A stretch of 64,000 bases of DNA from Candidatus Zixiibacteriota bacterium (GCA_024280835.1 JAJRPJ010000011.1:308404-372403), one strand, 5' to 3'; counted from the first letter of the stretch, positions 1,255-59,149 are shown. Program-made: numbers and translations. Notes: generated from the sequence alone by a model not told the origin.

Positions 1255-1281
1255 CAAAGGTTCTGTCGGACAAGCCGATAA
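1255..1281 (+). promoter_or_regulatory. sigma28/FliA-like promoter of the histone-like gene
   Basis: CAAA-N15-GCCGATAA versus the consensus TAAA-N15-GCCGATAA, oriented toward 1503. Confidence 0.7.
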
Positions 1282-1502
1282 CTAAAACAAATTCATCGTG
1301 TTATGTGGATTAGTGTGATTTTTGAAATGCATTTCCGCTACGTGATGAGAACAGAAAAAGAAGATAACAGAAGAACTAAGTAACCTAATCACAAAGAAGG
1401 GGATGACGTTCGGAGAAGACGCTTTTGTTTGAGTATCAAATATGAGCGCTGGATTCTTGCGAAGTTCCGTTTGAGCATTAACACATTGAAAGGAGCCATC
1501 AC

Positions 1503-1979
1503 ATGGCTTTTCGTAAAACAACCGCACGTCGTAAACCAGCAGCCAAGCGCAATGCTACACCGCGCGCCACAACCCGTCGCAGCGCCACCAAGCGCGGCGC
1601 CACAGTTCGCGTAAAAGTTTGGTCCGCCAGTGAGATCAGCCAGTTGCGTAAAAAATATCGCAACACAACCAACACCAAAATTGCCAAGTCACTTGGTCGT
1701 ACAGTTGCTTCTGTCCGCGCCAAAGCTGGTTCATTGAGCCTCAAGAAGAACAAAAACTTCTTGTCAATGGTCGCCAAGACTGCTGGTAACGGTGGTATGA
1801 AAACCCGCAAGAGCACAGCTCGCAAGACTGTCGCCCGTAAGGCCAGTTCAATGCGCGGTAAAGCTACCAAGCGCACCGCCGCGAAGCGTAATGCTCCAAA
1901 GCGTAAAACTTCAGCTCGTAAGAGCTCGACACGTCGCGCCACTTCATCCATGAAGCGTAAGGCCACACGTCGTCGCTAG
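1503..1979 (+). CDS. Histone H1/Hc2-like basic protein with a central Myb/SANT-like HTH
   Basis: RBS AAGGAG. 53 of 158 residues are K/R, with one acidic residue. Basic pentapeptide-like tails flank WSASEISQLRKKY…IAKSLGRTVASVRAKA. Followed by its own terminator. Confidence 0.8.
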   Translation: MAFRKTTARRKPAAKRNATPRATTRRSATKRGATVRVKVWSASEISQLRKKYRNTTNTKIAKSLGRTVASVRAKAGSLSLKKNKNFLSMVAKTAGNGGMKTRKSTARKTVARKASSMRGKATKRTAAKRNAPKRKTSARKSSTRRATSSMKRKATRRR

Positions 1980-2016
1980 TCGTTGAAATGACATTCAGCT
2001 CGTAAGGGTTGAATTG

Positions 2017-2051
2017 AAAAAGCCCGACAGCGAGACTGTCGGGCTTTTTTT
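2017..2051 (+). terminator. Rho-independent terminator
   Basis: AAAAAGCCCGACAG-cgaga-CTGTCGGGCTTTTTTT. Confidence 0.9.
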
Positions 2052-2179
2052 GTGCTTATGACACTAGGGAAAACTTAGGCATGGCTCTGCCAGTTTTGAA
2101 CCTGTTAGTATCTAGTCCAGATTCGAGTACCTCACCTGAAGTCTGCAGCAATCATGTCTCGAATGTCTTACTACAATCA

Positions 2180-2208
2180 AACGAAGCCCGACAGATATAC
2201 TGCCGGGC
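2180..2208 (-). terminator. Probable terminator of the spondin gene
   Basis: Minus-strand GCCCGGCAG-tatat-CTGTCGGGC followed by TTCGTTT. Confidence 0.6.
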
Positions 2209-2271
2209 CTCATTTTGCTGCTCTTTCGTAGCTTTATTGTAGGGCTAATGCTAAGAGTTTAAAGTCTTCGA

Positions 2272-3162
2272 CTAATCGTCGTCTCCATCGTCGTCATTGT
2301 CGTTGTCATGATCAGACTCACCGCCAGAAATGAGTTCGATAGTGACTTTCGTAATCTTCTTTTCGATGACATTGGCATATGGGTCGAGATCGCCATTACC
2401 CTGTGTGCCTTTATGCTTTTTGATGCGCTGATGTGGGCTCGAGTCGACAGCATCGTTTTCATTGCCATTGGGATCACCCGCTAGAGCAATAGCTCCCAAA
2501 GCGCTACAACCATCAACAATGTCTGAACTATTCTCGGTATTGTATTCTGTGCCAGCGTCATAGGCCTTTGTGTAATAAACTCGTTTGCCTTCTTTCGGTA
2601 ATTTGACCGAATTCAAACCAGTGAATCCGTCATTTGTGCAGATCAACATCGCCGCAATCGAAAGACGGTCATGCTTCTTACCTGTGATTTCAAAGGTAAC
2701 ATAGTCTTTGAAATTGCCGACCATTGTGCCATAACGTGTCAGTGGCATACCAACATTGACAGCATCAGTCGAAGACGATGAAGCGCTGTAGCGATTGAAC
2801 ATCAATGAGACATCACCATTCTCTGCGATGGCCTCCAAACCACGCGAGGCGAGCTTGCCGACTTCAAACATTGTAAAACCTTTGACATGAGTGGCAATAA
2901 CTGGTGGGGCTAGCGGCTGTCCGACACTCAGGTTCTTGATAGTAACACGATAAGTACGCAGCCCATCACTGTCTTCGGAATCATCGGAGTCTGATTCGTC
3001 GCGCGAGCTACGGTATAGAGTTTGGAACTCTGGTGTTTCGTTGTCTGATGTAGTGGCGCTTGACGCATCGGAATTTAACATAGTGTCGTTTCCGCTACAA
3101 CCTACGAATGTCGCGCCTGATAAGGCGAAGACCGCTAGTAGTGTCAGCATTGATTTCTGCAT
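2272..3162 (-). CDS. Spondin_N-domain lipoprotein
   Basis: Start at MQKS after the GGAGG RBS; lipobox FVGC. Motifs YRVTIKNL..GQPLAP, IAENGD, AMLICTNDGFTG and YDAGTE are typical of bacterial spondin domains. Acidic C-terminal tail. Confidence 0.8.
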   Translation of the reverse strand: MQKSMLTLLAVFALSGATFVGCSGNDTMLNSDASSATTSDNETPEFQTLYRSSRDESDSDDSEDSDGLRTYRVTIKNLSVGQPLAPPVIATHVKGFTMFEVGKLASRGLEAIAENGDVSLMFNRYSASSSSTDAVNVGMPLTRYGTMVGNFKDYVTFEITGKKHDRLSIAAMLICTNDGFTGLNSVKLPKEGKRVYYTKAYDAGTEYNTENSSDIVDGCSALGAIALAGDPNGNENDAVDSSPHQRIKKHKGTQGNGDLDPYANVIEKKITKVTIELISGGESDHDNDNDDDGDDD

Positions 3163-3306
3163 ACTGAAAAACCTCCCTAAAAATGTAAGAAATTGTTTAG
3201 CGAACAATGTTTAGTAAATGTCTTCTGGCAAATGTCGTTTACCAAGCATTGAGCGCGCGCTTGAGGCGCCAGTCGGAGAGCTGGAGCTTCGTTGTTGTCA
3301 TGGAGG

Positions 3307-3335
3307 AATACGATATGAAGCTGTAAATTGGATTG
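3307..3335 (-). promoter_or_regulatory. ECF-type promoter upstream of the spondin gene
   Basis: CAATCC-N17-CGTATT; matches the motif upstream of the adjacent ECF sigma gene. Confidence 0.55.
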
Positions 3336-3387
3336 AATAAATCTATTTATTTCTTCGAAAAGCTTCAGGAAGCTAGACTTGGATGGC

Positions 3388-4218
3388 TTAGTGAATTTTG
3401 CTAAGCGTATTGTAGCCAAGGAGATAGCGCATGCCGGTTGGCTCTTTGACACCACCAATTGGCTCAATTGTGACCATGAAGGAATCAATCGAAGCAACAG
3501 TTGGCAAACCGCGGAATTTCAGGAGCGCATAACCATCATTCTGAACTGTGAAGACACCAACACTTTGGGTGACACTATCGTGCTTAATCCAAGCCTGATA
3601 CTCGCGGCCTTCGGGTACATCGGGCAATTTATAGGCATAGAATACGCCGAAATCTTCGTCGGGATGGAGGAAGAGTTTTGCGAAAGCCTGTGGGTTTGGT
3701 TCAACACCTGCGAGATCAACTAGTCGAGTGCAGGGTTTGCCGAGTAAGATTGTGGCGTCGTTTTGAATTGAATTGTCGTCGGCTAAACGATCGAGTTTGA
3801 TACTTGAATTGGCGAGTTCGTTTTGAAGATTTGAGATTTTTGAATTGAGTGTAACATTCCAGAACGCCAACACAACGACTGCAACTGCGCCTGTCATAGT
3901 TAGAGCTTTTGACCATTTCAACCATGCCGAGCTGGTCTCTGTGGGTGAGATGTTTGAACTAGTTGAATCATCTGATGTTTTTGAAATGACAGTTGTTTTG
4001 CTGACTTGCTGCATCAGAGACACTTTTAAACCTGCTGACGGAGATGATTCTTTTAGGCCTTGGGCAAGATAGAGCGAAACATCGCCGACTTCTCGTAGCC
4101 GCGCATGGCAAAGAGAGCACTTGGTATGCAAGTGTTCTTCGACCGCTTGATATTCGGCATCGGATAGGGCGCCGAAAACGTAGGCGTCTATGAGTTCGTA
4201 GGCTTCTTTGTGTTCCAT
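3388..4218 (-). CDS. RskA-family anti-sigma factor
   Basis: N-terminal zf-HC2-like AYVFGAL…HL..CSLC, one TM helix, C-terminal LP..PEGREYQAW…VTIEP.GG..EPTG. Confidence 0.85.
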   Translation of the reverse strand: MEHKEAYELIDAYVFGALSDAEYQAVEEHLHTKCSLCHARLREVGDVSLYLAQGLKESSPSAGLKVSLMQQVSKTTVISKTSDDSTSSNISPTETSSAWLKWSKALTMTGAVAVVVLAFWNVTLNSKISNLQNELANSSIKLDRLADDNSIQNDATILLGKPCTRLVDLAGVEPNPQAFAKLFLHPDEDFGVFYAYKLPDVPEGREYQAWIKHDSVTQSVGVFTVQNDGYALLKFRGLPTVASIDSFMVTIEPIGGVKEPTGMRYLLGYNTLSKIH

Positions 4219-4241
4219 CTGTCTTATTTGTACTACTCTGG

Positions 4242-4862
4242 TTATGCTTCTGTGTCCAGTAGAGTTCTTAGTTGAGAGATTGCCGCTCTTAGTCGACTTT
4301 TGACGGTTCCGAGTGGTGTGTCTATTTGTTCGGCTATTTCGGCATGCGAAAGACCACCGTAATAGGCCAATTCTATAACTTGTCTTTGATCGTTACTCAA
4401 CTTTTCTAGTTTCTTGAGCGCTCTGCCAACTACCATGCCAAGAGCTATTTGTTCGCTTTCTCTACCCGCCTCTGATCGCACAGCCTCTTGACCAGCTTTT
4501 GAGGTGACTTCGGGTTCAAGCTCTACCGTTACTTTTTGAGAGCGGTGATGTTTGGAGCGAGTTCTATCGATTGCTAGTCTTCTAGCTATCGTCACTATCC
4601 AAACTACGACACTGCCTCGGTTGGGGTCGAAACTTTGCGCCTTTTCCCAAATGCGCAAAAATACCGCCTGCGTGACTTCTTCGGCATCATCGGCATTGCG
4701 CACTACATTGAGGATAATACTATAAACTAATCCAACGCGACTATCATAGAGAGCCGAGAGAGCGTTTTGGTCACCAGTTTGGATTCTACCAAGTAGAATA
4801 CCGTCGAGGTGACCCGCCACATCGAAATTCCCGTTATTCCCTGTAGTCTCATTAGCCGACAT
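4242..4862 (-). CDS. ECF RNA polymerase sigma factor (SigK-like)
   Basis: DAEEVTQAVFLRIW; region 4 LAYYGGLSHAEIA…PLGTVKSRLR; adjacent to an RskA gene. Confidence 0.9.
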   Translation of the reverse strand: MSANETTGNNGNFDVAGHLDGILLGRIQTGDQNALSALYDSRVGLVYSIILNVVRNADDAEEVTQAVFLRIWEKAQSFDPNRGSVVVWIVTIARRLAIDRTRSKHHRSQKVTVELEPEVTSKAGQEAVRSEAGRESEQIALGMVVGRALKKLEKLSNDQRQVIELAYYGGLSHAEIAEQIDTPLGTVKSRLRAAISQLRTLLDTEA

Positions 4863-4885
4863 AGTCTCTCCACCGGCTATTAGCT

Positions 4886-4913
4886 AATACGAGGATATTT
4901 CTGATTTCGATCA
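4886..4913 (-). promoter_or_regulatory. Autoregulatory ECF promoter
   Basis: TGATCG-N16-CGTATT, 24 nt upstream of the sigma start codon. Confidence 0.55.
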
Positions 4914-5013
4914 CTGGAAATTGCATGGACTAGGAAAGTACATCTTTGGACGCGTTGTAGCAACAACATAATTTGCATGCCCGTAACCGTATGTTATTAT
5001 TCCGCTTATAACG

Positions 5014-5035
5014 AAAATGGGTTCGTTTTGCATAT
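5014..5035. repeat. Left copy of a 22-bp inverted repeat
   Basis: AAAATGGGTTCGTTTTGCATAT matches the reverse complement of 7411-7432 at 21/22. Confidence 0.8.
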
Positions 5036-5220
5036 ACAAGTTATCAGCGTTGGTAGATTGTTGTCTTTTTGTGATTTTGGTGGTTTCTGGTCTGATTTGG
5101 TTGATTCTGTTGTTCTGCTCTCATGCTATAGGTCTTGAGTTGTAATCTAGTGTAGGTTGGTTGTTTCTTCCCTCCAAATGGCATTGCGGGGACAACCCAA
5201 GCCTTGATTACTATGATTGT

Positions 5221-5520
5221 TTAATCCACGACGGTTAATCGGCGGATGTTTAGTTCTTCAGCTAGCAGGTCTGGTAGTTTGGCTATTGCCTCTTGGAGAT
5301 GGGGGCTGGCTAGATGAGCGTTGAGATGGGCTTCGCTTTGCCATTCTTCGATGAAGACAAACTCGCTGGGATCGGCATTATTGCTGTGCATTTCGTAGCG
5401 GATGTAACCGTCCTCTTTGGTGGTCGGCTCGATTAGGGTTTTCAGGTAGTCGCAAAGTTCCTGCTCTTTGCCAGATTTGGCTTTGAGGATGGCGACTACT
5501 CTTAGTGTTTTTTCTGACAT
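5221..5520 (-). CDS. ABM-family (putative quinol) monooxygenase
   Basis: VVA.LKAK.GKE…EDG.IRYE.H…FVFIEEW.SEA.L.AH..SPH pattern. Confidence 0.85.
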   Translation of the reverse strand: MSEKTLRVVAILKAKSGKEQELCDYLKTLIEPTTKEDGYIRYEMHSNNADPSEFVFIEEWQSEAHLNAHLASPHLQEAIAKLPDLLAEELNIRRLTVVD

Positions 5521-5552
5521 GTTCTTTCTTCCCTTGTTATAAGTTTGTCTGG

Positions 5553-9777: not shown

Positions 9778-9784
9778 TGGATAA

Positions 9785-15107: not shown

Positions 15108-16562
15108 CTATTTGATTTCGTTGAGTGCGTACTCTTTGATTTTGTAGAGCAAAGAACGATAGCTGATGTCCAGTAGCTGGGATGCTTTGCGGCGATTCCA
15201 ATTGGTCTTGGTTAGCGCCGCTCGAATCAACTGACTTTCCTCTTTGGTGACGACTTTCTCAATGCGCGCTTTGAGAGAGTAGCCATCGGTCTCTGGATCA
15301 AATGACGCGGAAAACTTCTCGTGAATGTGAGCTGTTGGGGTTGTGCTATAGCTGCCATTTGTCTCATATGGCGCTTGTGCCACAACACGAGATGAAGTTG
15401 CCAGTAGGTCATTGACAATCGATTCGTCATTGCGGACTACCATTTGTTTGATGAAGTTTTCAAGTTGACGAACATTGCCAGCCCACTCAAAATCGATGAG
15501 CTTTTTCATTGTCTCAGATGAAATATCTGGCAGTGACTTCTTGTACATCTTATTGTAGCGCTCGATAAAGTGATTTACCAAGAGCGGAACATCATCAGGT
15601 CGTTGACGCAGTGGCGGCAAGCCGAGAGTGATCTCATTGAGGCGATAGAATAAATCGTCGCGGAATTGTTTAGCGCTAATGGCTTCTTCGAGATTCTTGT
15701 TGGTCGCACTGACAATTCGCACATCCACGCGAATGTTTTGCACTCCACCCACTCGCACGAATTCTCGCTGTTCGATGGCTTGCAAGAGTTTTGACTGTAA
15801 CTCAATGGGCATATCACCGATTTCATCAAGAAAGATTGTACCCTTGTCGGCGACTTCGAAGCGTCCCTGTTTGGTTTTGTGAGCGCCAGTGAAAGCGCCT
15901 TTTTCGTAGCCAAAGAGTTCGGCCTCAAGCAGGTCACGTGGGATTGCGGCGCAATTGACTTTGACGAAAGGTTTCTTGGCGCGAGGTGATTTGCTGTGTA
16001 ATGTGCGCGCGGCAATTTCTTTGCCTGTGCCAGATTCACCACGAATTAGGACTGTTAGTTCTGATGGAGCAACTTGCTCGACAAGCTCTCGCACTTTGGC
16101 CATGGCGGCTGATTCGCCAATAAACATATTGCCGTCACGTGAGGCGCTCAACTCTTTTTGTAGGCCGACAACTTTGTTTTTGAGTTTACGACGTTCGATG
16201 GCGGTTTTCAGATGAATACCGACTTCTTCGATTTCGAAGGGTTTTTTGATAAACTCAGTCGCGCCACGTTTCATGGCTTCGACAATCATTTCGGTCTCGG
16301 CGTGACCTGAGAGCATGAGCACATCAGGGTGATTTTCAACTTTCTTTAGTTTGTCTAAAACTTCGAGGCCGCTCATACCTGGCATTTTGATATCTAGCAG
16401 GATGATATCAGGCGACTCGGTAGTCACCATTTGGATGCCTTCGATACCGTCTCGGGCGGATTTGAATTCAAAATCACCAGAAAGGCCTTTGTTCAGCATC
16501 CATGACACATTTGGATCATCGTCGATTACTAGCACTTTCAATTGTTCTGACTTGCGCGGCAT
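15108..16562 (-). CDS. sigma54-dependent NtrC/AtoC-family response regulator
   Basis: REC domain, GESGTGKE, intact GAFTGA, FLDEIG, W.GNVRQL, Fis HTH. Confidence 0.95.
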   Translation of the reverse strand: MPRKSEQLKVLVIDDDPNVSWMLNKGLSGDFEFKSARDGIEGIQMVTTESPDIILLDIKMPGMSGLEVLDKLKKVENHPDVLMLSGHAETEMIVEAMKRGATEFIKKPFEIEEVGIHLKTAIERRKLKNKVVGLQKELSASRDGNMFIGESAAMAKVRELVEQVAPSELTVLIRGESGTGKEIAARTLHSKSPRAKKPFVKVNCAAIPRDLLEAELFGYEKGAFTGAHKTKQGRFEVADKGTIFLDEIGDMPIELQSKLLQAIEQREFVRVGGVQNIRVDVRIVSATNKNLEEAISAKQFRDDLFYRLNEITLGLPPLRQRPDDVPLLVNHFIERYNKMYKKSLPDISSETMKKLIDFEWAGNVRQLENFIKQMVVRNDESIVNDLLATSSRVVAQAPYETNGSYSTTPTAHIHEKFSASFDPETDGYSLKARIEKVVTKEESQLIRAALTKTNWNRRKASQLLDISYRSLLYKIKEYALNEIK

Positions 16563-16659: not shown

Positions 16660-16686
16660 GTATCGGCTGGAGAGTGTGAAAAGTGG
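16660..16686 (-). promoter_or_regulatory. sigma28-like promoter of the sigma54 activator
   Basis: CCAC-N15-GCCGATAC, 98 nt upstream of the start. Confidence 0.55.
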
Positions 16687-16812
16687 AGCGACTTTGCGGC
16701 AATTAGATTCGCATGTGCAATGCTAGTTCATTCTTACCAGAGACATGTGACAAGCTAGCGTCCATATTGAAACAACTGGGACTAGCATTACTTAAGGGCA
16801 TAAACGCAAGCG

Positions 16813-19011
16813 TCAGATATTGCTATCAACAGTTATGTCTTCCATAGGAAAATACAGAGTAAAGGTAGCGCCTTCATCTTCCTCGGACGTTACTGTGATT
16901 GTTCCGTTGTGTGCGGACATGATTCGTTCGACAACAGCCAAGCCAAGTCCAGTGCCAGTTTCTTTGGTAGTAAAGTATCTATCAAATAGCTTTGAAATAT
17001 CTTGTTTCTTGATGCCTGTTCCCGTGTCCATGATTGAGAGGGCTAGGTAGTCACTACTTTTGAAATCTGGACGGTCAATTTTTCCCCTAACAGTTAATTC
17101 TCCACCGTCAGGCATGGCATCCACGGCGTTCATCATCAGATTTAACAAGACTTCAAACACTTGATTTTTGTTTACAATCACTTCCCAGTTTGTGTCGGAG
17201 AAGCTAAATTGTGTGGTGATGCGATGCTTTTGCAAGTCGGGTGCGACTAACTCAATCGCTCTGACAACTAGGCGCCGTAGGTCTGTTTTTTCGGCTTCGT
17301 ATTTGTGAGGTTTCGAAAAGTCAACTAGCTCACTGACTAGTTCGTTTAGCCGATGTGACTCTTCTTCAATTAGCCGAATCAATTGCGAGCTATCTTCGCT
17401 GGCGCTATCGCCGATTTCTTTTCTGAGAAGGCCGATTGAGCCTTTGATGGCTGTTAGTGGCTTACGTAAATCGTGCGATATCTCTGATATCATATTGCCC
17501 ATAGTTAAGAGCCGTGAAGCATTTAGCATGGCTCTTTCCTTTTCGAACAGCGAAGCCGATTGGGATACAACAATATCTGCTAGAGAGCGCTCATGGATAT
17601 TGTAGTCATCCAAGTAGCTAGTGCCGAAGCAAAACAAATAAGTCACTGCCCCCCCCCGACTAACTGGCGCTACCATGAAGGCATCGTTAGCATCGCATCC
17701 AAGGCCAATACGTGGCAGGCATTCGGCGATATACGTTTCCAAGTCTTTGCGATTTGATGTTTCCATGCGCTCAACCGCTACGCCACGGATTACAGGATCG
17801 CTTACTTTGTCATCACCGAAAACAATATTCCCAGAATCGGAGTATTCCATTTGCTTTCCGTAGGCGCCAACGGCTTTTAGAGTTTGTGTACGATTGTCGT
17901 TTTGGAGCCAAATACAATATTCAAGAGGTATCAATTAACTTAGTGTTTTGAATACTAAAGCTAACATGTCTTTTTGTGAAGTCACGAACTTCATTTTTTC
18001 AGTTAGATCATGAATTGCGCGGAACTCTGCTAGTTGTCTTGAGATTTCATCGAACTGACGTGAATCATTGATTACCACTGCCGCCTGCGCGGCGAACATA
18101 ATTGCCAAACGCAAGTCTGCCTCACTAAAGACGGCGCCGTCTGTTTTGCGCGACAGATTAATGACACCTAGGATATTGGAGCCGACTTTTAGAGGCACAC
18201 ATATCAGTGAGGCATTGCCATACCGCGCGCCGCTCTTGCGCTTGAATCGCGCGTCCTCTTCCACATTCTCAATCAATAGCGGGTCTCCTGATTTGGCGAC
18301 ATAACCTGAGATTGACTTGCCTAGTGGCTGACGGACTTCGTGGACGATTTGCGATTCTAATCCCAATGCGGCGGCAATCGTCAAGTAGGCGCCTGACTGA
18401 TCGATGAGCATTATCGAGCCGACTGTTGCGTGGGTAACTTTGGCTGCCAACGCTAGAATATTTTCTAGAAGGGCTCTAGTGTCTGAGGTTGAAGACAATG
18501 ACACGCTGGCATCATAGAGAGCATTTATTTCATCAAATCTACTAGATAGTTGGCGATTCGATTCTCCGAGTGTCTCTAGTAGATTCCGTTTGTGTGACTC
18601 GAGATGTTGACGTTCACGCGCTTTTTTAAGTGATGAATGTAATCTGTCAATACTCACTGGTTTGATGAGATAGTCGGAGGCTCCCATGCTCAGCGCCTCG
18701 ATTGCAGTTTCGACTGTAGCGTGGCCAGTGAAGAGAATTACGCAGACGTTGTTGTCGGCTTCCCGTGCTTTTTTTAGAATTTCCAGGCCATTCAAGCCAG
18801 GCATTTTCAAGTCTGTTAGGATTATATCCCAACGATTGGTACTGATTTCCAAGTAGGCTTTTTTCGGATCTTCGAAGGCTACGACCTCGTAGCCGTCCTC
18901 AGTGAGAATCTGACGAATGGATTCTAAGACTGACGGCTCATCATCAATGAGCATCACACGCTGAACTGTGGAATTCTGATCTTTGGCGCTTGTTTCTCTG
19001 GTTTGTTTCAA
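16813..19011 (-). pseudogene. REC-GAF-GAF-HisKA-HATPase hybrid kinase interrupted by one in-frame TAA (17935-17937)
   Basis: The two ORFs abut in the same frame (KTLS*LIPLEY). H-box EISHDLRKPL, N/G boxes and GTGLGL are in the distal part. Confidence 0.75.
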
Positions 19012-19145: not shown

Positions 19146-19172
19146 TTATCGGCCCGAAAGCCAACATCCTCA
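19146..19172 (-). promoter_or_regulatory. sigma28-like promoter of the hybrid kinase
   Basis: Perfect -10 GCCGATAA with a weak -35 (TGAG) at N15. Confidence 0.5.
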
Positions 19173-29100: not shown

Positions 29101-29234
29101 AGTCCTTACCCCATTGCACTAATTCCTTGCCGATTCTGTTCCAAGATCATCCATCAAGAGTAACCCATTATGCGTAGGAACAGTTAGGATTCGTATTTTC
29201 GCCTAGAATCGGCTCTACTAGGCATTATAGAATA

Positions 29235-29250
29235 AGCAATAATGCCGCCA
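29235..29250 (-). promoter_or_regulatory. sigma54 (-24/-12) promoter of the flagellin-like gene
   Basis: TGGC-GGCATTA-TTGCT with exact GG-N10-GC spacing. Confidence 0.65.
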
Positions 29251-29464
29251 TGAAGATTGCTGGGCATCAGATTAAGTAACTGACATAGTGACAGCGAGTT
29301 GGATTATTCGGCAATTTCAGGGAAGAAAGAAACTGTAGGGTAATGACCATACATTATGGAAATCAACCTACAACATTTGTCACAATCAATATTCGGTACA
29401 ATCATTTCTGATTCAGAAAACATCTTATTGAATAACAATATCTCAATAAATAACTACCAGATAC

Positions 29465-29500
29465 AAAAAGGCCGCCGGCAGGACAACGTTACCGGCGGCC
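29465..29500 (-). terminator. Terminator of the dcw cluster
   Basis: GGCCGCCGG…CCGGCGGCC followed by TTTTT on the minus strand. Confidence 0.8.
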
Positions 29501-29504
29501 ACTA

Positions 29505-29582
29505 TTTGTACAATACTGCTTTGAAACAATACTTATTTGAAGCAATACATACTTGAAACAAACTTCATTGAAACAAAAACTA
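29505..29582. repeat. Five degenerate ~16-bp tandem repeats (TTGAAACAATAC) in the ftsZ 3' UTR
   Basis: tttgtacaatac, tttgaaacaatac, tttgaagcaatac, cttgaaacaaac, ttgaaacaaaaac. Confidence 0.6.
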
Positions 29583-29691
29583 CAAAAAGCAAAATACAAA
29601 AAACTGTTTTAGAATATTGGAACCGTGTGATTGGCGCCTTTAGAAGGAACCGTCCCCACGATATTCTATATGTGTGATAAGTTTTTCTTTA

Positions 29692-50748: not shown

Positions 50749-52197
50749 CTATTTCGCCACCCCTGGCGTTACCATCTTCTTCAAGTCCAAGACTTTCTTG
50801 ACTTCGGCGGGGGTCATTAGGCCCATTGAGACTATTACTTCTGGGATTGGTTGGCCTGTGGCTAGGGATCGTTTGAAGACTTCGGCGGCTTTGCTGTAGC
50901 CGATGATTGGGTTGAGGACTGTCACTAAGGAACTGGTGGTCATCGCATAACGCAAACACACCTCTTTGTTAGCAACTACTCCCGCTACACACTTTTCGTT
51001 GAACGTCTTCAGGCAGTTGGTCATGATGGTGAACGACTGCGGCAAGTTCCAAGCGATGAGCGGCATCATGACATTCAACTCCATCTGCCCCGCCTGCGCG
51101 GCCCAGAGAATGGCTTGATCATTTCCGAGAATTTGGAAGCAAATCATATTTGTCATCTCAGCAATCACTGGGTTAACTTTGCCAGGCATGATCGACGACC
51201 CTGGTTGGACTGTCGGCAATTTGATTTCAGCTAGTCCGACATTGGGCCCCGAAGAAAGCAAACGCAGGTCATTGGAGATACGCGAAATATCCTGCGCAAG
51301 ATTTCTCAGAGCGCCAGAGACTGCGACAAACGGAGCCAGTGATTGCATGCGCTCGAAATAATCCTTGGCGGGTTTGATTCCAAGTTTGGTTTGTTTTTGT
51401 AATTGAGCGGCGACTGCTTTGCGGTATTTGGGATGACTGTTGATACCTGTGCCCACAGCTGTTCCGCCAAGACCAATTTCTTGCAGTTCAGGCAAAGTGG
51501 CTTTGACTCCCGCAATCAGTTTTTCGACAGCGGTGGCATAGGCGCCCCATTCCTGACCGAGTGTTACAGGAGTGGCGTCTTGCCAATGTGTGCGTCCTGA
51601 TTTGAAAATCTTATCGAAAGCCTTGGCTTTTTTGCGGAATGATTTGGCTAGCGCGGTACCTTCGGCAATTAGCTCTTGGGCAAGTGATAGAGTTGCCAAG
51701 CGGATGCAAGTTGGGATGACATCATTGGTGGACTGGCCGAAGTTGACATGGTCATTGGGATGGACTTGGGTGTAGGTTCCGCGTTTGCGGACACCGAGCA
51801 ATTCATTGGCGCGATTAGCCAGAACTTCGTTGAGGTTCATATGGTGGCTAGTTCCAGCCCCTGCCTGATAAACATCGACAACAAACGAATCGGTAAATTT
51901 TCCAGTCAACGCTTCATCTGCGGCTCGCACAATTGCCTTGGACTGTTTCTTGCCGATGGTCTTTAGGTTGCCATTGACAATGGCAGTGGCTTTTTTCAGC
52001 TGTAAGCCAGCCCAGACAAAACGCTCATGCGGTTTCTGCCCCGAGATTTGGAAGTTCTCCACGGCGCGCGCTGTTTGAGCTCCATAGTAGGCGCTCGATG
52101 GGATTTTCATTTCGCCCATTGAATCGGACTCGATGCGGTAGGATGTCTGTTTTGTAGCTTGCTTGGCTCTCGTTTTTGTCATCTTCTTTTTCGCCAT
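50749..52197 (-). CDS. Aspartate ammonia-lyase / class II fumarase family
   Basis: RIE.DSMG, HPNDHVN..QSTND, GRTH.QDA, GSSIMPGKVNP; K/R-rich N-terminal tail. Confidence 0.92.
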   Translation of the reverse strand: MAKKKMTKTRAKQATKQTSYRIESDSMGEMKIPSSAYYGAQTARAVENFQISGQKPHERFVWAGLQLKKATAIVNGNLKTIGKKQSKAIVRAADEALTGKFTDSFVVDVYQAGAGTSHHMNLNEVLANRANELLGVRKRGTYTQVHPNDHVNFGQSTNDVIPTCIRLATLSLAQELIAEGTALAKSFRKKAKAFDKIFKSGRTHWQDATPVTLGQEWGAYATAVEKLIAGVKATLPELQEIGLGGTAVGTGINSHPKYRKAVAAQLQKQTKLGIKPAKDYFERMQSLAPFVAVSGALRNLAQDISRISNDLRLLSSGPNVGLAEIKLPTVQPGSSIMPGKVNPVIAEMTNMICFQILGNDQAILWAAQAGQMELNVMMPLIAWNLPQSFTIMTNCLKTFNEKCVAGVVANKEVCLRYAMTTSSLVTVLNPIIGYSKAAEVFKRSLATGQPIPEVIVSMGLMTPAEVKKVLDLKKMVTPGVAK

Positions 52198-52289: not shown

Positions 52290-52316
52290 TTATCGACGTC
52301 TCTGTCCACTAAGTGA
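52290..52316 (-). promoter_or_regulatory. sigma28-like promoter of the aspartase/fumarase gene
   Basis: TCAC-N15-GTCGATAA. Confidence 0.5.
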
Positions 52317-52414: not shown

Positions 52415-52442
52415 TCAAGAGAGTCCTTACAGCATCCGATAT
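52415..52442 (+). promoter_or_regulatory. sigma28-like promoter of the truncated Hb operon
   Basis: TCAAG-N15-TCCGATAT. Confidence 0.5.
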
Positions 52443-52504: not shown

Positions 52505-52876
52505 ATGGCAAACGAAACATTGTTTGACAAAATCGGTGGTGAAACGGCAGTTAATGCGGCAGTGGATATTTTCTATCGCAGGGTTTTGGGCGATGACACA
52601 TTGGCTGCATATTTTGACGGTGTCGATATGGATGCCCAACATGCCAAGCAGAAGTCATTTTTGACAATGGCTTTTGGTGGACCGAACAACTACACAGGCA
52701 AGGACTTGCGCGAAGCGCACAAGGGAATGGTCGCTCGTGGTATGAACGGGTCGCATTTTGCTTCTGTTGCTGGACATTTGCAAGCTACACTTGAGGAATT
52801 GAATGTCCCTGAGGACTTGATCGGCGAAGTTATGGCTATCGCTGGCTCGACCAAAAAAGATGTCTTGAACGTCTAG
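52505..52876 (+). CDS. glbN: Group I truncated haemoglobin
   Basis: LF..IGG, FY.RV..D, FGGP..YTG..L..AH; strong RBS GAGGAG. Confidence 0.93.
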   Translation: MANETLFDKIGGETAVNAAVDIFYRRVLGDDTLAAYFDGVDMDAQHAKQKSFLTMAFGGPNNYTGKDLREAHKGMVARGMNGSHFASVAGHLQATLEELNVPEDLIGEVMAIAGSTKKDVLNV

Positions 52877-52881
52877 CCCCT

Positions 52882-53934
52882 ATGGGAAGTGACAAAGTCA
52901 TACTTTCCATAGACGGGCAAGAAATTGTCTGTCAAGAATCAGAAACTGTTCTAGATGCGGCTCTGCGCTGTGGCGTGCCAGCTAGGTATTCCTGTCGAAA
53001 TGGGATTTGCCAAAGCTGTATGCTCCGCGCAACCGCGGGACAGCCTTCAGAGATGTCGCAAAAAGGGTTGAAACCCGCTGTTGCATCTCAGGGCTATTTC
53101 TTGGCGTGTCAACATGTACCCACAGAGAGCCTAACTGTCTCGCTTGATGAGGCCAAGGGCACATACTCCTCTGTTTCGATATTGTCGAATGAGGCTCTTA
53201 GTGGCGATGTTTATAAAATTAGCCTGTCTCTCCCAAAGGAGCGTGAGTACAAGACAGGGCAATTTGTCAATCTCCGCAAGGATAGCGGCGAGATACGCTG
53301 CTATTCACTGGCTTGTGTTTCGGAGGCTAGAGCGACTCTCGAATTACATGTCCGACTTATTCGAGGTGGAGCTGTCTCTACTTGGCTTTGCAACACGGCC
53401 AATGTTGGGCAAAAAGTAGAAATTTCTGAGGGGCGCGGTGATTGCGTCTTTGTTCCAGATAGAAGTAAGGCTGACAAGCCAATTTTACTGATGGGCACTG
53501 GCACGGGACTCTCATCATTGTATGGGACAATCAACATTGCTCTTGAAAGTAATCACTCAGGGGAGATATTTCTCTATCATGGAGCATCTAAGAAACATCA
53601 ACTATACCTTGTTGATGAATTACTTGCTCTTGAGGACCGTCACCCAAACTTTCATTATGTACCTTGTGTTTCAGGCGAGGCGGGAAGTTTCGGATTTCGA
53701 GAAGGTCGCTCTCATGATCTTGCACTCAAAGATAACAAAGAGCTGAAAGAGTACTTGGTTTTCACATGCGGTAACCCTGAAATGGTCCGTAGCGCTAAAC
53801 GCAGAGCCTATATGCAAGGTGCTACGCTCCATAATATTTTCGGTGACGCCTTCGTTCGCGCTCATGCTTCTAACTCTGCATCAGAGTCTGGCAAGGTGAA
53901 CATCAGGAATTTAAAGTTCACCACTTCTTCATAA
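52882..53934 (+). CDS. 2Fe-2S ferredoxin-FAD/NAD(P)H oxidoreductase
   Basis: C-x4-C-x2-C…LAC, RCYS, G..S.W, GTGTG, CGNPEMV. Confidence 0.9.
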   Translation: MGSDKVILSIDGQEIVCQESETVLDAALRCGVPARYSCRNGICQSCMLRATAGQPSEMSQKGLKPAVASQGYFLACQHVPTESLTVSLDEAKGTYSSVSILSNEALSGDVYKISLSLPKEREYKTGQFVNLRKDSGEIRCYSLACVSEARATLELHVRLIRGGAVSTWLCNTANVGQKVEISEGRGDCVFVPDRSKADKPILLMGTGTGLSSLYGTINIALESNHSGEIFLYHGASKKHQLYLVDELLALEDRHPNFHYVPCVSGEAGSFGFREGRSHDLALKDNKELKEYLVFTCGNPEMVRSAKRRAYMQGATLHNIFGDAFVRAHASNSASESGKVNIRNLKFTTSS

Positions 53935-54299: not shown

Positions 54300-54352
54300 A
54301 CCGTAATCTTTCTACAATCTTACTTTTCTAATTGAATTCTATCTGATGTTAT

Positions 54353-54410: not shown

Positions 54411-54416
54411 TCGGCT

Positions 54417-54444
54417 AATATACAATAAAATGCCTATTTGGCAA
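54417..54444 (-). promoter_or_regulatory. sigma70 promoter of rpmA
   Basis: TTGCCA-N16-TATATT. Confidence 0.65.
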
Positions 54445-54532
54445 GCGGATATTCAACTCTCTTGTCTGACTCGGCCCCAGTCTCACTTCCCAGAGAGCCG
54501 CTACTACTCCGTGAACTCTTGTGCGCTTAATC

Positions 54533-54568
54533 AAAAAACACCTCGTCGCGACATTGCGACGAGGCGTT
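54533..54568 (-). terminator. Terminator of clpC
   Basis: Minus-strand AACGCCTCGTCGC…GCGACGAGGTGTTTTTT. Confidence 0.85.
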
Positions 54569-54612
54569 AACTTGATGGAATTCAATGCATTACAAGACAG
54601 CTAGGTACCGAA

Positions 54613-57108
54613 CTAACTACTCACAGTCTCTGGCTTGTCAGCGGCGCCCGCTTCGTCACCAGTCTCTTCGGTTCCTGAATCACCTTTTGAAAAGTTGAAA
54701 GTCAGGGCCTCTTCGGCGTCATCAACACCAATTATCAGATCCACATCTCCAGCATACTGGCCACGCAGGATCTCTTCAGAGAGCGGATCCTCAAGGTATC
54801 TCTGCAAAGCTCTCTTCAGCGGTCTGGCGCCATAGGCGGGATCGAAACCGACTTTGGCAAGGAATGACTTGGCCTCTTCCGTCAGGTTGAAACTGATGCC
54901 TTTATCGGCGAGACGTTTGGCGATGTCAACCAACAGAATGTCAACAATCTGTTTGATATGTTTCAATTCCAAATTGTGGAAAATGATACTCTCGTCGATA
55001 CGGTTGAGTAGCTCTGGATTGAAGAGCTTCTTCAATTCCTCGGTCACACGTTTCTTGACATTATCATAGGTCTGGTCGGCGTCTTGATTTTCAAAGCCAA
55101 CTGTCTTGTTCTCGCCGATTTGGCGAGTGCCAACATTCGAGGTCATAATGATAACAGTGTTCTTGAAATCAATTTTTCTGCCAAAACTATCGGTGATGTG
55201 TCCATCATCCAGTAGTTGCAAGAGAATATTGAACACTTCTGGATGAGCTTTTTCAATTTCATCGAGAAGCACAACAGAGTATGGCTTACGGCGAACTTTC
55301 TCCGTTAGCTGACCACCCTCTTCATATCCGACATAACCTGGAGGCGCGCCTGTTAGACGACTGACTGCAAATTTTTCCATGTACTCGGACATATCAACAC
55401 GAATCAAAGAATCTGGGTCATCAAAGAGGAACTCAGCTAAAGTGCGAGCTAGCTCGGTTTTGCCGACACCAGTTGGCCCGAGGAAGATGAATGAACCGAT
55501 AGGACGACGTGGATCACCCAAACCTGAGCGAGCGCGACGAATTGCGCGACTGACCGCTTCGATAGCCTCTTCTTGGCCGACGAGACGTTTCTTGAGTTCG
55601 TCTTCCATACGCAACAAGCGTTTGGATTCTTTTTCTTCGAGACGGAACAATGGAATACCAGTGATTTGTGACAGTACAGCGGCGATATCTTCGCTGGTCA
55701 GCACAGTTTTCTTCTCTTCACGCTGCTCTTCCCATTCACGCTGTAACTCAACCAGACGTTCGCGCTCGGCTTTGAGTTCGTCACGCAATTGCGCGGCGGT
55801 TTCAAAGGCCTGATTTTTGACCGCTTGCTCTTTCTTGATTTGAATATCAGCGATGCGGGTTTCGATCTCGGCGAACTCTGCTGGTTTGGTATAGGAAGAC
55901 AAATGCGCCCGCGCTCCAGCTTCATCGATTAGATCAATCGATTTATCTGGCTGGAACCGACTACTGATATAACGAGTCGAAAGTTTGACAGCGGATTCTA
56001 TCGCTTCATCAGAGATAACAATCTTGTGATGATCCTCATATCTAGCGCGCAGACCTTTGAGGATTTGAATTGTATCAACTTCAGATGGTTGCTCAACTGT
56101 GACAGTTTGGAAACGTCTGTCGAGGGCGCCATCTTTTTCGATGAACTTGCGATACTCATTGAGAGTTGTCGCGCCAATACACTGTAACTCACCGCGTGAC
56201 AATGCTGGTTTGAAGATATTGGAAGCATCGAGTGAGCCTTCTGCGCCACCTGCTCCAACAATTGTGTGCAACTCATCAATGAAAATGATAACGTCCTTGG
56301 AATTGACAATCTCATTCATCACAGATTTGAGGCGTTCCTCAAATTGTCCACGATACTTTGTGCCCGCCACCAGTGAGGCCATATCGAGTGTGACAACTCT
56401 CTTGCCTTCAAGTGTCTGCGGAACTTTGCCTTCGACAATACGCTGTGCCAAACCTTCGGCGATAGCGGTTTTGCCTACACCGGGCTCACCGATGAGCACA
56501 GGGTTGTTCTTTTTGCGACGAGAAAGAATTTGCGAGACACGCTCAATCTCGGTTTCTCTACCGATGATAGGATCGAGACGCCCGCGACGCGCATACTCTG
56601 TTAGGTCACGTCCGAAATGATCAAGCGCTGGTGTCTTTGATTTTTTGCGTTTCTTCTTGAATGATGAAGGCTTACCGTTTTGAATATTCTTCAGCTCTTC
56701 ATAGGCTTCTTTGTAATCAATCTCAAACATCGAGAGCACTTGCGCGGCGATACCTTCTTCATCTTTGAGAAGCGCCAAGAGAATGTGCTCTGTGTCAATG
56801 TCTTTGGATTTCAACGCGCGAGCTTCTTGCCCAGAAACTTCGAGCGTTTTCTTAGCGCGCGCTGTCAGTGGCAATTGACCAATTGTCATTGTTCCACCTG
56901 ATGGCTGGACGACATCTTCAATGGAAGTCTTTAGGTCCATCATATCTAAGCCCAGGTTGGCTAAGAGTTCAGCAGACCGTCCTTCACCCAGGCGTATGAG
57001 CCCGAGAAGAAGATGTTCTGTCCCGATGTAGTCGTGACGCAAACGAGCAGCTTCATCACGAGCATACTCGATTGATTTTCGCGCCATTTCTGTGAACATC
57101 TCATTCAT
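54613..57108 (-). CDS. clpC: ATP-dependent Clp protease ATPase ClpC
   Basis: Clp N repeats, [11 protein letters not shown]-like M domain, [11 protein letters not shown] loop; start MNEM. Confidence 0.96.
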
Positions 57109-57193
57109 GTCTTTATTTCCTTCCAATCTTTCTAACACAAAAATAGCGCTTGTAGTTCATTCTTAGCAACAGAATTATTTTGCGCTAGGTTGT

Positions 57194-57220
57194 CTATCGT
57201 CGTCTTGTCCGTCTTCTTTG
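57194..57220 (-). promoter_or_regulatory. sigma28-like internal promoter of clpC
   Basis: CAAA-N15-GACGATAG. Confidence 0.6.
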
Positions 57221-57343
57221 CTATATTTCTGTCACTACTCTACAACTGCTTTGTTCTTGTTAGTCTTGAACTTATGCGTTAAACGCGCGTAGTTGTTACA
57301 CGCAAACAAAGTTTGCGTGACTTACTCGTTTTCTATCAACAAA

Positions 57344-58420
57344 CTAAGGATCACTGCGTCTATCACTTATACGTAACCGCTCGCGAACCATTTGTGCTCG
57401 CACTGCATCACGTTTGGATTGATCCATTTCTTCGCCATAATACATTTGTAAATGCGCTGGTTGCGAGAGCAAAAGTATTTCATTGATTTGATCCAAATCA
57501 ATGAATGAGACTCTACCGAGAGCCACGCCAAAGCGTACCGCCGAAAGCATATTCATAACTTCTTCTGAGGTTAGTGAGCGCGCGTACTTGAGAATACCAT
57601 AAGCGCGCCAAACTTTATCGTCGATTTGGTTTTCAGCTTCCTCGACCAATCGATTACGCGCATCACCTTCTTCGGTGATAATTGATTCGGTAATCGTCAC
57701 AATACTTTTGAGGATTTCATTTTCGGAGGCGCCCAATGTTGTTTGATTGGAAATCTGAAATAGATTCCCGAGCACATCAGAGCCTTCACCATAGAACCCT
57801 CTGACCACCAAACCCATTTTTGAGATTCTAGCGATGACATTGTCTATCTCACCAGTGAGAACCAGCCCAGGCAAATGGATAAGCACCGAAGCGCGCATGC
57901 CTGTGCCGACATTGGTTGGGCATGCGGTCAGAAATCCAAAATCCGGATCATAGTCTATTTCAAGTGAACTACATAAATCACTGTCTAGTTCATTGGCGCG
58001 TTCGTAGGCGCGGTAGAGATGCAGCCCAGGGTACATTGACTGCATGCGCAAATGATCTTCTTCGTTAATCATGATTGAGGTGCGTTCATCTTCATCAATA
58101 TATAGCGCGCGATTCGGTTCATCATCGAGGAATGTCGGAGAGATCAAATGTCTCTCGACAAGGAAGTCCCGTGTCAATGAACTGAGTTCATTGGACTCAA
58201 TAAATCCTTCATTAACTAATGAGCTTGAACGATCAATCGCAGTTTTGACATAGCTTACAACTTTCTGCATGGTCTCGCTGTCGGCGGAATTTGGATAGCG
58301 CAAACCACTAATATTACGCGCCAAACGCACGCGCGAAGAAAGCACCACCGATGTCTGCTGCCCAGGGGCTGTTAGCCATGAAGCTGGGCGACGAGCCATT
58401 TTATCAAAATCTGGTGTCAT
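57344..58420 (-). CDS. mcsB: Protein arginine kinase
   Basis: SSRVRLARN, NEEDHLR, CPTNVGTGMRAS, FQISNQ.TLG. Confidence 0.95.
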   Translation of the reverse strand: MTPDFDKMARRPASWLTAPGQQTSVVLSSRVRLARNISGLRYPNSADSETMQKVVSYVKTAIDRSSSLVNEGFIESNELSSLTRDFLVERHLISPTFLDDEPNRALYIDEDERTSIMINEEDHLRMQSMYPGLHLYRAYERANELDSDLCSSLEIDYDPDFGFLTACPTNVGTGMRASVLIHLPGLVLTGEIDNVIARISKMGLVVRGFYGEGSDVLGNLFQISNQTTLGASENEILKSIVTITESIITEEGDARNRLVEEAENQIDDKVWRAYGILKYARSLTSEEVMNMLSAVRFGVALGRVSFIDLDQINEILLLSQPAHLQMYYGEEMDQSKRDAVRAQMVRERLRISDRRSDP

Positions 58421-59010
58421 TACTTATTGACCTCATTTTCTTCGTGCTCTGCCTTCTCGGATGAATCTTCTGAACGCTTTTCGTTTTCAAGGGCCTCTTT
58501 GACTTGCGCGCGAATCTCTCTGAGTCGATCACGTAAATCCGCAGCGCGTTCAAACTCTTCGCTCTCGATTGCGCGCTGATATTCTGACTCGAGACGCTCT
58601 TGCTCCTGAACACTTATGACACCGTTGTCTTCAGAGTTTGGTAGTTTGCCGCGATGAATACTGTTGCCATGTATTTTGCGGAGAATAACCTCAAGCCTTG
58701 GACGGAAGACTTCATAGCAGGCGCCACAACCAAAGCGCCCTTGTTGGGAAAACTCGGCAAATGTCATTCCACATTGCTGACAAGACGAATTTTCAGAATC
58801 ATCATCAAGTGGCGCTAGTGATTGATCGACTATACTGCCGAGAATTTTTGCAAGCGGAAAAGGATTTTGGTCCAAAGGATTATGAAAACCCATCGCTGAA
58901 GCGCACTCTCTACAGAGTGTCAAGACAGTCTTTTGACTGCCGCGAACTTGAGTAATCTTCAGTGAACCGTCAGCGTCTTTACCGCAGTTATGGCATTTAA
59001 TTTTGTCCAT
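58420..59010 (-). CDS. mcsA: McsB activator McsA
   Basis: Four CxxC motifs, HG…H.GK, C-terminal UVR (E.FERAA.LRD). Confidence 0.93.
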   Translation of the reverse strand: MDKIKCHNCGKDADGSLKITQVRGSQKTVLTLCRECASAMGFHNPLDQNPFPLAKILGSIVDQSLAPLDDDSENSSCQQCGMTFAEFSQQGRFGCGACYEVFRPRLEVILRKIHGNSIHRGKLPNSEDNGVISVQEQERLESEYQRAIESEEFERAADLRDRLREIRAQVKEALENEKRSEDSSEKAEHEENEVNK

Positions 59011-59122
59011 GGCGCTCTTCCAAACAGTTTGTCTAACTATCCATGTAGCTCAGAGGTTAATAAGTCGTAATTGCTATTGTAGTCTGCAATAGTTTCTATC
59101 CAGCCACCTCATATATGTTTAA

Positions 59123-59149
59123 CTATCGGCAGTTCTAGCTGAACCTATT
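59123..59149 (-). promoter_or_regulatory. sigma28-like promoter of mcsA-mcsB-clpC
   Basis: AATA-GGTT…(N15)-GCCGATAG. Confidence 0.6.

Follow-up and report, generated by a model that had tools for sequence, protein, structure and literature searches.

In Chlamydia, sigma-28 controls the late histone-like gene hctB, and the class-3 flagellar promoters of Escherichia coli and Salmonella follow the consensus TAAAGTTT-N11-GCCGATAA. For E. coli, 52 binding sites of FliA (sigma-28) have been reported, and 30 of these are intragenic (Fitzgerald et al. 2014, PMC4183435). The FliA of Bdellovibrio bacteriovorus is described as a global attack-phase regulator, with TTAAG-N16-CCGATA present in 92 of 140 mapped attack-phase promoters and assigned to FliA (Karunker et al. 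2013, PMC3627812), and RpoN (sigma-54) is described as acting before FliA in the flagellar hierarchies of Vibrio, Pseudomonas, Campylobacter, and Helicobacter (PMC3930126). Here we analyzed a stretch of 64,000 nucleotides (nt) from a Candidatus Zixiibacteriota genome (GCA_024280835.1; contig C13:308404-372403), called the window below, in which an initial annotation had placed seven sigma-28-like motifs before genes for an H1-like protein, a sigma-54 activator, a hybrid kinase, an aspartase, a truncated globin, ClpC, and McsA, and had assigned them to a non-flagellar developmental or dormancy programme. Our analysis indicates that the organism, a flagellated member of Candidatus Zixiibacteriota, quite probably has a genome-wide FliA regulon of which the window is a sample, and that RNA polymerase carrying its single FliA would most likely recognize (C/G)T(T/C)AAG-N15-GCCGATA.

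The genome (G000) comprises 3.31 Mb in 20 contigs and is 96% complete. Profile searches detected FlhA (891 bits), FliD, three Flagellin_N genes, one of them inside the window, and five rod- or hook-type matches. Among the 11 sigma-70-family genes, the three longest were scanned with NCBIfam, and a single FliA scored above the curated cut-offs (TIGR02479, 251.7–253.5 bits against 189.6; NF005413, 231.4 bits against 201). Its gene lies three genes after flhA and adjoins FlhF/FlhG-like genes. The remaining two scanned genes encode a 279-amino-acid (aa) RpoD-like protein and a factor of the extracytoplasmic function (ECF) type, and we take seven other sigma-70-family open reading frames (ORFs; 183–219 aa) to be ECF factors by size; rpoN was also present. 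We compared G000 with 30 genomes of its order (G001–G030), of which G001 and G002 belong to the same genus and G001–G004, together with G000, to the same family. FliA above cut-off and FlhA were found in all 31 order genomes searched. The first Zixibacteria genome had been predicted to be non-flagellated (PMC3903129); given the flagellar genes in G000 and in all order genomes searched, the present organism is not "non-flagellar", and the absence of flagellar genes that would characterize a Chlamydia-like, non-flagellar sigma-28 system was not observed in G000. The presence of a sigma-28-family factor, which the initial annotation required, was thereby confirmed, and the detachment of the regulon from flagella was contradicted by FlhA, the flagellin-family genes, the rod genes, and a best site before fliD.

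To characterize the motif, intergenic sequence was divided into the strand pointing toward the start of the next gene and the strand pointing away from it. GCCGATA occurred 77 times toward and 15 times away in G000, compared with 16.2 and 18.4 occurrences expected toward under Markov-1 and Markov-2 models (P ~1e-27 and ~1e-24) and 11.0 and 11.2 expected away. Its density per 100 kb was 17.0 toward, 4.2 away, and 9.6–9.9 in coding sequence. Among the 14,846 heptamers that occurred 15 times or more, its orientation bias was the second strongest (p 4.6e-8, ~7e-4 after Bonferroni correction), behind CTTGACA (119 toward, 26 away). CTTGACA is the sigma-70 -35 box, and its top rank suggests that in the housekeeping -35 element of G000 TTGACA is preceded by a conserved C. 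Just two of the 64 NNNGATA words stood out, GCCGATA (77/15) and GTCGATA (43/10), and the pooled ratio was only 1.25, which shows that the signal is not a generic GATAAT-type -10 element. Aligned oriented sites had T at -20 and A at -18 and -17, iterative refinement yielded the consensus given above, and 108 of 134 in-sample sites fell 50–300 nt before start codons. Expectation-maximization of the zero-or-one-occurrence-per-sequence (ZOOPS) type, applied to the full set of upstream regions, drifted toward a T-rich signal, and we abandoned it; reverse-complemented upstream regions contain divergent promoters and therefore make a poor control.

Using a 14-column model with two-fold cross-validation, we found more sites toward than away, after length normalization of the away counts, at every held-out threshold: 32 and 4.0 at scores of at least 14 bits, 53 and 10.7 at 13, 77 and 21 at 12, 102 and 34.3 at 11, 134 and 55.4 at 10, and 249 and 123.5 at 8 bits. 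This cross-validated excess suggests roughly 70–125 sites in the genome. In-sample scores serve for ranking only, and the held-out scores of the window sites were obtained by training without the window's contig. When GCCGATA sites were binned by -35 score, with a spacer tolerance of ±1 and the same normalization, toward and away counts were 17 and 8.0 below 0, 24 and 6.6 from 0 to 2, 26 and 2.7 from 2 to 4, and 5 and 0 at 4 or above, so that enrichment grew with -35 quality, as for a promoter-like motif. The motif thus showed the oriented, positional enrichment over intergenic background expected of a sigma-28 promoter, in agreement with the initial annotation. It is scarcely credible that GCCGATA is instead bound by a regulatory protein or belongs to a repeat element: some sites do lack a -35 element and the promoters are predicted from sequence, but the strand bias (77 vs 15), the -35 partner at a fixed distance, the identity of the word with the sigma-28 consensus, the top match at fliD, and flanks that are not repeated, with site contexts that all differ, argue against it.

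Within the window alone the signal was weak. GCCGATAA with at most one mismatch had 66 matches, compared with 45.8 ± 6.8 in shuffled sequence (1 of 100 shuffles reached 66), and most of these matches sit in coding sequence. The window contains 4 of the 79 oriented GCCGATA sites in 1.9% of the genome length, where about 1.5 would be expected, and is not a hotspot. These counts, together with the arbitrary -35 words of the initial annotation and two of seven sites at background level, could be accommodated by an ordinary small class-3 flagellar regulon with the seven window motifs as chance matches to a loose pattern. We consider this very improbable, given about 57 excess GCCGATA sites on the oriented strand, the cross-validated excess of 70–125 sites, only a handful of them at flagellar genes, and an H1-like site that is invariant in five family genomes.

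The best site of the genome (19.5 bits in-sample) lies before fliD and is conserved in G001 and G003 and, as CTGAA/CTAAA-N15-nCCGATAA, in members of families f4 and f2; G002 and G004, whose matches were truncated 5', and G006, which had no locus, were left out of this comparison. The second-best site stands before a 144-aa ORF that matches no family and lies three genes downstream of fliD, and the rod-protein operon has a site of 14.3 bits in-sample. We scanned 40 of the top 43 distinct target genes with Pfam; the three others were the H1-like gene, which was scanned separately, a 52-aa ORF (C11:2086-2244), and a 1,459-aa ORF (C2:525-4904). A flagellar domain was lacking in 39 of the 40 and present in one. 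Three targets were related to type IV pili or type II secretion (T2SSE ATPase, PilM, and an N_methyl pilin-like protein), 10 to signaling (three single-domain receivers, several kinases, GGDEF-GAF, HDOD, and SpoIIE proteins), and 16 to other functions, including a subtilase with dockerin, a Big_1 adhesin, transaldolase, an epimerase, LepA, and aspartyl-tRNA synthetase (AspRS), while 10 belonged to no family. Genes with Spore_YtfJ and SpoIIE domains were among the top targets. The largely non-flagellar content supposed by the initial annotation was therefore found in the high-scoring set.

This predicted set has the features of the Bdellovibrio regulon as that report describes it: the word and spacing are the same (TTAAG-N16-CCGATA there, (C/G)T(T/C)AAG-N15-GCCGATA here), about a hundred promoters are involved (92 of 140 there, ~70–125 predicted here), and the targets, there surface proteins, proteases, and regulators, are mostly non-flagellar in a flagellated organism. 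The systems differ in that Zixibacteria belong to another phylum, of the Fibrobacteres–Chlorobi–Bacteroidetes (FCB) group, with no known predatory or biphasic life cycle, in that the Bdellovibrio starts were mapped by 5'-end sequencing whereas ours are predicted, and in that the Zixibacteria targets include an H1-like protein, pilus genes, rpoN, and a sigma-54 activator. The E. coli and Salmonella class-3 promoters share the -10 element and fliD as a target, and AAAGTTT stands in place of the -35 element in three relatives in our alignment of the H1-like promoter. Unlike the E. coli set, as far as it is reported in the paper cited, the predicted intergenic set of G000 is several times larger and mostly non-flagellar, and the flagellin-family and methyl-accepting chemotaxis protein (MCP) genes of G000 have no strong sites. 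The statistics of the motif, the genes present, and the conservation of the sites are shown by our analysis; that FliA is the factor which reads the motif, and that any of these promoters fires, is inferred. FliA is the probable reader, since G000 has one FliA above cut-off, the consensus is that of Bdellovibrio FliA, and the top site is at fliD. The flagellar sigma factor would then probably act as a broad lifestyle regulator.

The FliA open frame of G000 comprises 407 aa (L004:973-2196; G000:C12:212815-214038), with the sigma domain at aa 145–400 preceded by about 140 K/T/A/S-rich residues of H1-like composition; the start codon is provisional. Same-genus genomes also have a basic N-terminal extension (~109–183 aa), which is mixed or acidic in G003 and G004 and only ~40 aa long in other families. 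The only RpoD-like sigma factor of G000 is short (279 aa; L002:1006-1845; G000:C10:76852-77691, minus strand) and aligns only to the C-terminal part of RpoD models. A short protein of similar length is the second match to the FliA_WhiG model in all 30 relatives except G003, which has one match. A short primary sigma factor is known in Bacteroidetes.

All seven window motifs are present, each on the strand facing its downstream gene, and the annotated distances of 63–222 nt agree with the gene starts of our ORF picker. The -35 words first proposed (CAAA, CCAC, TGAG, TCAC, TCAAG, CAAA, and AATA) are too loose on their own, and the statistical signal resides in the -10 element. This element is canonical or near-canonical at five of the seven sites, reading GCCGATA at the H1-like, activator, kinase, and mcsA sites and TCCGATA at the globin site; the aspartase and clpC sites are at background, and the clpC site has no GCCGATAA-like -10 element. 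A -35 element of the TAAA(G) or TTAAG type was recognizable at the globin (TCAAG) and H1-like (CAAAG) sites, while the -35 scores of the kinase, activator, and mcsA sites were between -3.9 and +0.8. As sigma-28 promoters, the H1-like and globin sites are therefore good candidates, the kinase and activator sites agree in the -10 element only, the mcsA site is doubtful, and the clpC and aspartase sites fail. Coordinates and scores are given in Table 1.

The H1-like promoter is very likely real. Upstream of the ribosome-binding site, only AAAG and GCCGATA are invariant in the five family genomes, with diverged surroundings, and homologues across the order have a sense match of at least 10.7 bits in 15 of 29 loci, compared with an antisense match in 1 of 29. 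The CAAAG of G000 lies one base nearer to the -10 element than the optimum of the model. Orthologues of the 158-aa product (56–77% identity) were found in all four family relatives, and the gene is a conserved target, as first claimed. The "H1-like" label describes composition only: the protein matched no Pfam or NCBIfam family at default thresholds, and its only weak match was to PF07382 (HC2, the chlamydial Hc2/HctB family) at 18.8 bits against a cut-off of 40 (E 0.0019), a compositional similarity that does not amount to membership. As at Chlamydia hctB, a sigma-28-type promoter would precede a small, very basic, low-complexity protein of DNA-binding type, and HC2 is the only Pfam family with any similarity to it. 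Unlike Chlamydia, the organism is flagellated and, as far as known, free-living with no known developmental cycle. If the promoter is real, the leader would be ~215–220 nt long; its last ~45 nt (TTCCGTTTGAGCATTAACACA...TTGAAAGGAGCC) are kept in the genus. No Rfam family reached its gathering score anywhere in the window, including this leader.

The globin promoter is likely real as well: the sole true globin orthologue found (G002, 85% identity) keeps CTTCAG-N15-CCCGATAA at 12.4 bits. The H1-like and globin/reductase genes are thus likely direct targets on the predicted two-box promoters. The arrangement of globin followed by reductase (52505-53934) resembles a split flavohaemoglobin.

Upstream of the kinase orthologue, GCCGATA(A/T) is present amid diverged surroundings in all four family relatives, with scores of 10.1 (G001), 14.1 (G002), 13.7 (G003), and 11.5 bits (G004), and the kinase is a probable target. 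Order-level matches upstream of the kinase, of the GGCGGATG...CTGCCGATAGA type, were discounted; they lie where the coding sequence of another kinase gene, the one before it, ends (…LPIE). The annotated hybrid kinase has the expected receiver-GAF and HisKA-HATPase parts but is split in G000 by an in-frame TAA, where G001 and G002 have AAG or AAA (Lys); in relatives the kinase is one open frame of 604–800 aa. The TAA could reflect a pseudogene, a strain polymorphism, or an assembly error.

In 29 of 30 loci the activator gene comes after that of the kinase; the G003 locus lacks it. A G(C/T)CGATA -10 element is kept at d=99–105 in G001, G002, and G004, the family relatives that have the activator. 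In the kinase-activator gap, the best match has the CGATA core in 18 of 29 loci, and matches of at least 10 bits occur in 13 of 29 on the sense strand vs 4 of 29 on the antisense strand. Outside the family the element reads CTTGATT-N14/15-TG(C/A/T)CGATAA (in f3, ...CGATTAAT), which also fits a sigma-70 promoter of the form TTGATT-N16-GATAAT. The activator element thus appears to be a conserved promoter whose assignment to sigma-28 or sigma-70 is ambiguous. Just upstream of it, the four family genomes share a second conserved block, TTGCACAT(n)GAATC(n)A(n)TTGCCG(n)AAA, which may be a regulator binding site; its spacing is not the -24/-12 arrangement of sigma-54 promoters.

A comparable element precedes rpoN itself (14.4 bits in-sample; ~114,930 on contig C7, minus strand), so that the link to sigma-54 drawn in the initial annotation holds both for the NtrC-type activator of the window and for rpoN. 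The best match upstream of rpoN has the CGATA core in 30 of 30 order genomes; G003 (76% complete) had no match in this comparison. The element lies 50–75 nt from the first start in 25 of 26 genomes outside the family and 102–136 nt from it in four of the family, scores at least 8 bits in 24 of 30 genomes on the sense strand vs 8 of 30 on the antisense strand, and is covered by no sense frame of more than 100 aa in 27 of 28 genomes checked. Families f2 and f4 have the classical TAAA at -35 (GTAAAC, CTAAAT) in the form TAAA-N16-nCCGATAA, and families f1 and f3 have CTTGA(A/G) with N16/17-GATAnT, which is ambiguous with sigma-70. As in the RpoN-then-FliA systems covered by the review (PMC3930126), sigma-54, sigma-28, and NtrC-type activators coexist in a flagellated bacterium; unlike in them, a sigma-28-type element stands before rpoN and an activator, which suggests that the order is reversed or that there is feedback. 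Neither the text available of this review nor our literature searches yielded a report of an rpoN gene under FliA control.

These elements leave room for a narrower interpretation, in which only the two-box sites (H1-like and globin) are sigma-28 promoters and the kinase, activator, mcsA, and same-family rpoN sites are of sigma-70 or another type, with -10 elements (GATAAT, GATACA, GATATT) preceded by CC by chance. We give it a clearly lower probability than the FliA reading. The activator sequences outside the family, which read CTTGATT-N16-GA(T/C)... with GAC, ACC, and GTC prefixes and GATTAAT in f3, would agree with it, as would the f1 and f3 form of rpoN, the rank of CTTGACA as the top oriented heptamer, and the low enrichment of GCCGATA sites with a poor -35 element. 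Against it, the full G(C/T)CGATA is kept amid diverged sequence at the kinase (4 of 4) and the activator (3 of 3 family relatives with the gene), the activator -35 sequence CTCCAC of G000's family fits sigma-70 no better, the genome-wide enrichment is that of the GCC prefix and not of GATA as such, and rpoN in f2 and f4 has the classical sigma-28 form. On the FliA reading, which we prefer, the kinase and activator promoters are probable targets, with a conserved -10 element and a -35 element that is weak or ambiguous.

The clpC and aspartase genes are not targets. The aspartase motif (GTCGATAA) was rejected on its scores and is explained by a sigma-70-type promoter, TGGACA-N17-TATCAT, whose spacer contains it; in G002 the CGAT core is lost (GTAGATTA) and TGGACA-N17-TATCAT is kept. 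The clpC motif (GACGATAG) was likewise rejected at background level and had no counterpart in the mcsB-clpC gap of the closest relative (best score 0.5). Phosphoarginine (pArg) proteolysis as a regulon function therefore rests on the mcsA site, and mcsA is an uncertain target: its in-sample score falls in a bin with equal toward and away counts (8 vs 8), and only the two genomes of the same genus keep its -10 element, which is embedded there in a longer stretch of conservation. Upstream of mcsA, G004 reads ACCGATAC and G003 has no counterpart; scores of at least 8 bits occur in 9 of 29 relatives, mostly at other positions, and a few f3 genomes have CTCAG-N15-(G/T)CCGATAT 60–64 nt before mcsA.

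A sigma-28 developmental or dormancy programme apart from motility, combining nucleoid condensation, pArg proteolysis, nitric oxide and oxygen handling, and a sigma-54 tier, appears unlikely. The conserved H1-like target, the globin operon, the conserved elements at rpoN and the activator, the Spore_YtfJ and SpoIIE genes, and the precedent of Chlamydia sigma-28 control of hctB would all be consistent with such a programme. However, each of the 31 order genomes searched is flagellar, the best site is the one before fliD, pilus and chemosensory-type signaling genes dominate the named targets, the clpC site was rejected and the mcsA site is doubtful, and nothing in the data speaks of dormancy or a second cell type. 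A motile-phase or lifestyle regulon like that of Bdellovibrio FliA is more economical.

Several points weigh against the FliA reading. Three of the five retained window sites have no sigma-28-like -35 element, and GCCGATA sites with a -35 score below 0 are only ~2-fold enriched. TTGA occupies the -35 position in 9 of 73 GCCGATA sites, compared with a 3.8% background; this subclass includes rpoN in G000's family and f3 and the activator promoter in other families, and its sites are compatible with TTGAnn-N16/17-GATAnT and might be recognized by the primary sigma factor. The three flagellin-family genes match weakly (6.2, <1, and 9.2 bits in-sample), four MCP genes score 0.1–10.5 bits, and FlgM was not found with PF04316 in the 96% complete genome. 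A first model with 34 columns was overfitted: its in-sample excess at scores of at least 11 bits (134 toward, 22.6 away) shrank on cross-validation and its held-out scores for the seven window sites were unstable, and the 14-column model replaced it. Gene calls were made with a simple dicodon-score ORF picker (2,703 genes, 87% coding) and are crude, the relatives are kin and not independent samples, a search for RNA runs containing the window sequence listed none, and the promoters are all predictions.

Table 1. Features of the window discussed in the text. Positions are counted from its first nucleotide; scores are in bits (in-sample; held-out).
Feature	Position	Strand	Score	Remarks
H1-like promoter (predicted)	1255-1281	+	15.8; 12.7	CAAAG (-35), GCCGATAA (-10, 1274-1281); ~222 nt before start codon
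H1-like leader (predicted)	1282-1502	+
158-aa basic protein gene	1503-1979	+		K/R/T/A-rich tails around short globular core
ECF-type sigma factor gene	4242-4862	-		Sigma70_r2, r4_2, Sigma70_ECF (Pfam); no link to motif
NtrC-type sigma-54 activator gene	15108-16562	-		Sigma54_activat 242.8, Response_reg 89.9, HTH_8 41.8 bits
Activator element (candidate)	16660-16686	-	13.5; 13.7	-10 GCCGATAC; CTCCAC, no sigma-28-like -35; -35 part 0.6-0.8
Second conserved block	~16690-16740	-
HisKA+HATPase gene	16813-17934	-		Pfam
In-frame TAA	17935-17937	-		splits kinase
Receiver+GAF gene	17935-19011	-		Pfam
Kinase -10-like element (candidate)	19146-19172	-	13.0; 10.2	GCCGATAA, 142 nt before gene; TGAGGA at -35 position unfit; -35 part -2.2 to -3.9
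Flagellin-family gene, 256 aa	28330-29100	-		Flagellin_N + Flagellin_C
Upstream of flagellin-family gene	29101-29691
Aspartase/fumarase-family lyase gene	50749-52197	-		Lyase_1 297.5, FumaraseC_C 63.2 bits (Pfam)
Aspartase sigma-70-type promoter (predicted)	52308-52303, N17, 52285-52280	-		TGGACA, TATCAT
Aspartase motif (rejected)	52290-52316	-	3.3; 4.4	-35 part -4.3 to -7.2
Globin operon promoter (predicted)	52415-52442	+	14.0; 14.6	TCAAG-N15-TCCGATAT, 63 nt before start; -35 part +4.9 to +5.3
Truncated globin gene	52505-52876	+		Bac_globin 67.3 bits (Pfam)
Ferredoxin-reductase-like gene	53020-53934	+		FAD_binding_6 + NAD_binding_1
clpC	54613-57108	-		AAA_2/Clp_N/ClpB_D2-small (Pfam)
clpC motif (rejected)	57194-57220	-	3.3; 3.2	background level
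mcsB	57344-58420	-		ATP-gua_Ptrans 215.1 bits
mcsA-like gene	58420-59010	-		UVR (Pfam)
mcsA site (doubtful)	59123-59149	-	11.6; 8.5	AATAGG-N..-GCCGATAG, 120 nt before start

The flagellin-family gene of the window, which the initial annotation did not mention, matched the NCBIfam flagellin models below their cut-offs. The region upstream of it contains weak sigma-28-like sequences (GCCGAATA, 9.2 bits, and GCCGATTC, 6.6 bits in-sample), and also a GC-rich hairpin with a T-run that resembles a terminator of the preceding gene.

In the mechanism we propose, FliA would be transcribed from the flagellar cluster and, as in its family, presumably held by an anti-sigma factor until the hook-basal body is complete. 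Active FliA would then direct the polymerase to about a hundred promoters, turning on the filament cap, pili, sensors, cyclic di-GMP (c-di-GMP) enzymes, the H1-like protein, and the globin-reductase pair, and would probably also turn on rpoN and the NtrC-type activator, giving rise to a second tier. FliA would in this way couple the motile-phase state to the supply of a nucleoid protein, to globin expression, and to part of the sigma-54 system. More tentatively, and with clearly less confidence than in the regulon itself, this arrangement might extend across the order, with FliA placed above sigma-54 and a nucleoid protein, rpoN, the NtrC-type activator, and the H1-like gene as core sigma-28 targets, and flagellar assembly gating both the chromatin state and the sigma-54 regulon. 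If true, this would represent a circuit for motile-phase differentiation in a phylum that is free-living and uncultured, convergent with the sigma-28/hctB pair of Chlamydia and inverted relative to the RpoN-then-FliA hierarchy.

Zixibacteria are uncultured, and our literature searches found nothing on their sigma factors. Compared with the initial annotation, the regulon extends the flagellar one and does not replace it. If our reading is right, it makes the regulatory code of about a hundred promoters readable, predicts a sigma-28-driven H1-like gene and a sigma-28 element before rpoN throughout the order, and would constitute a second, phylogenetically distant case of FliA as a global regulator.

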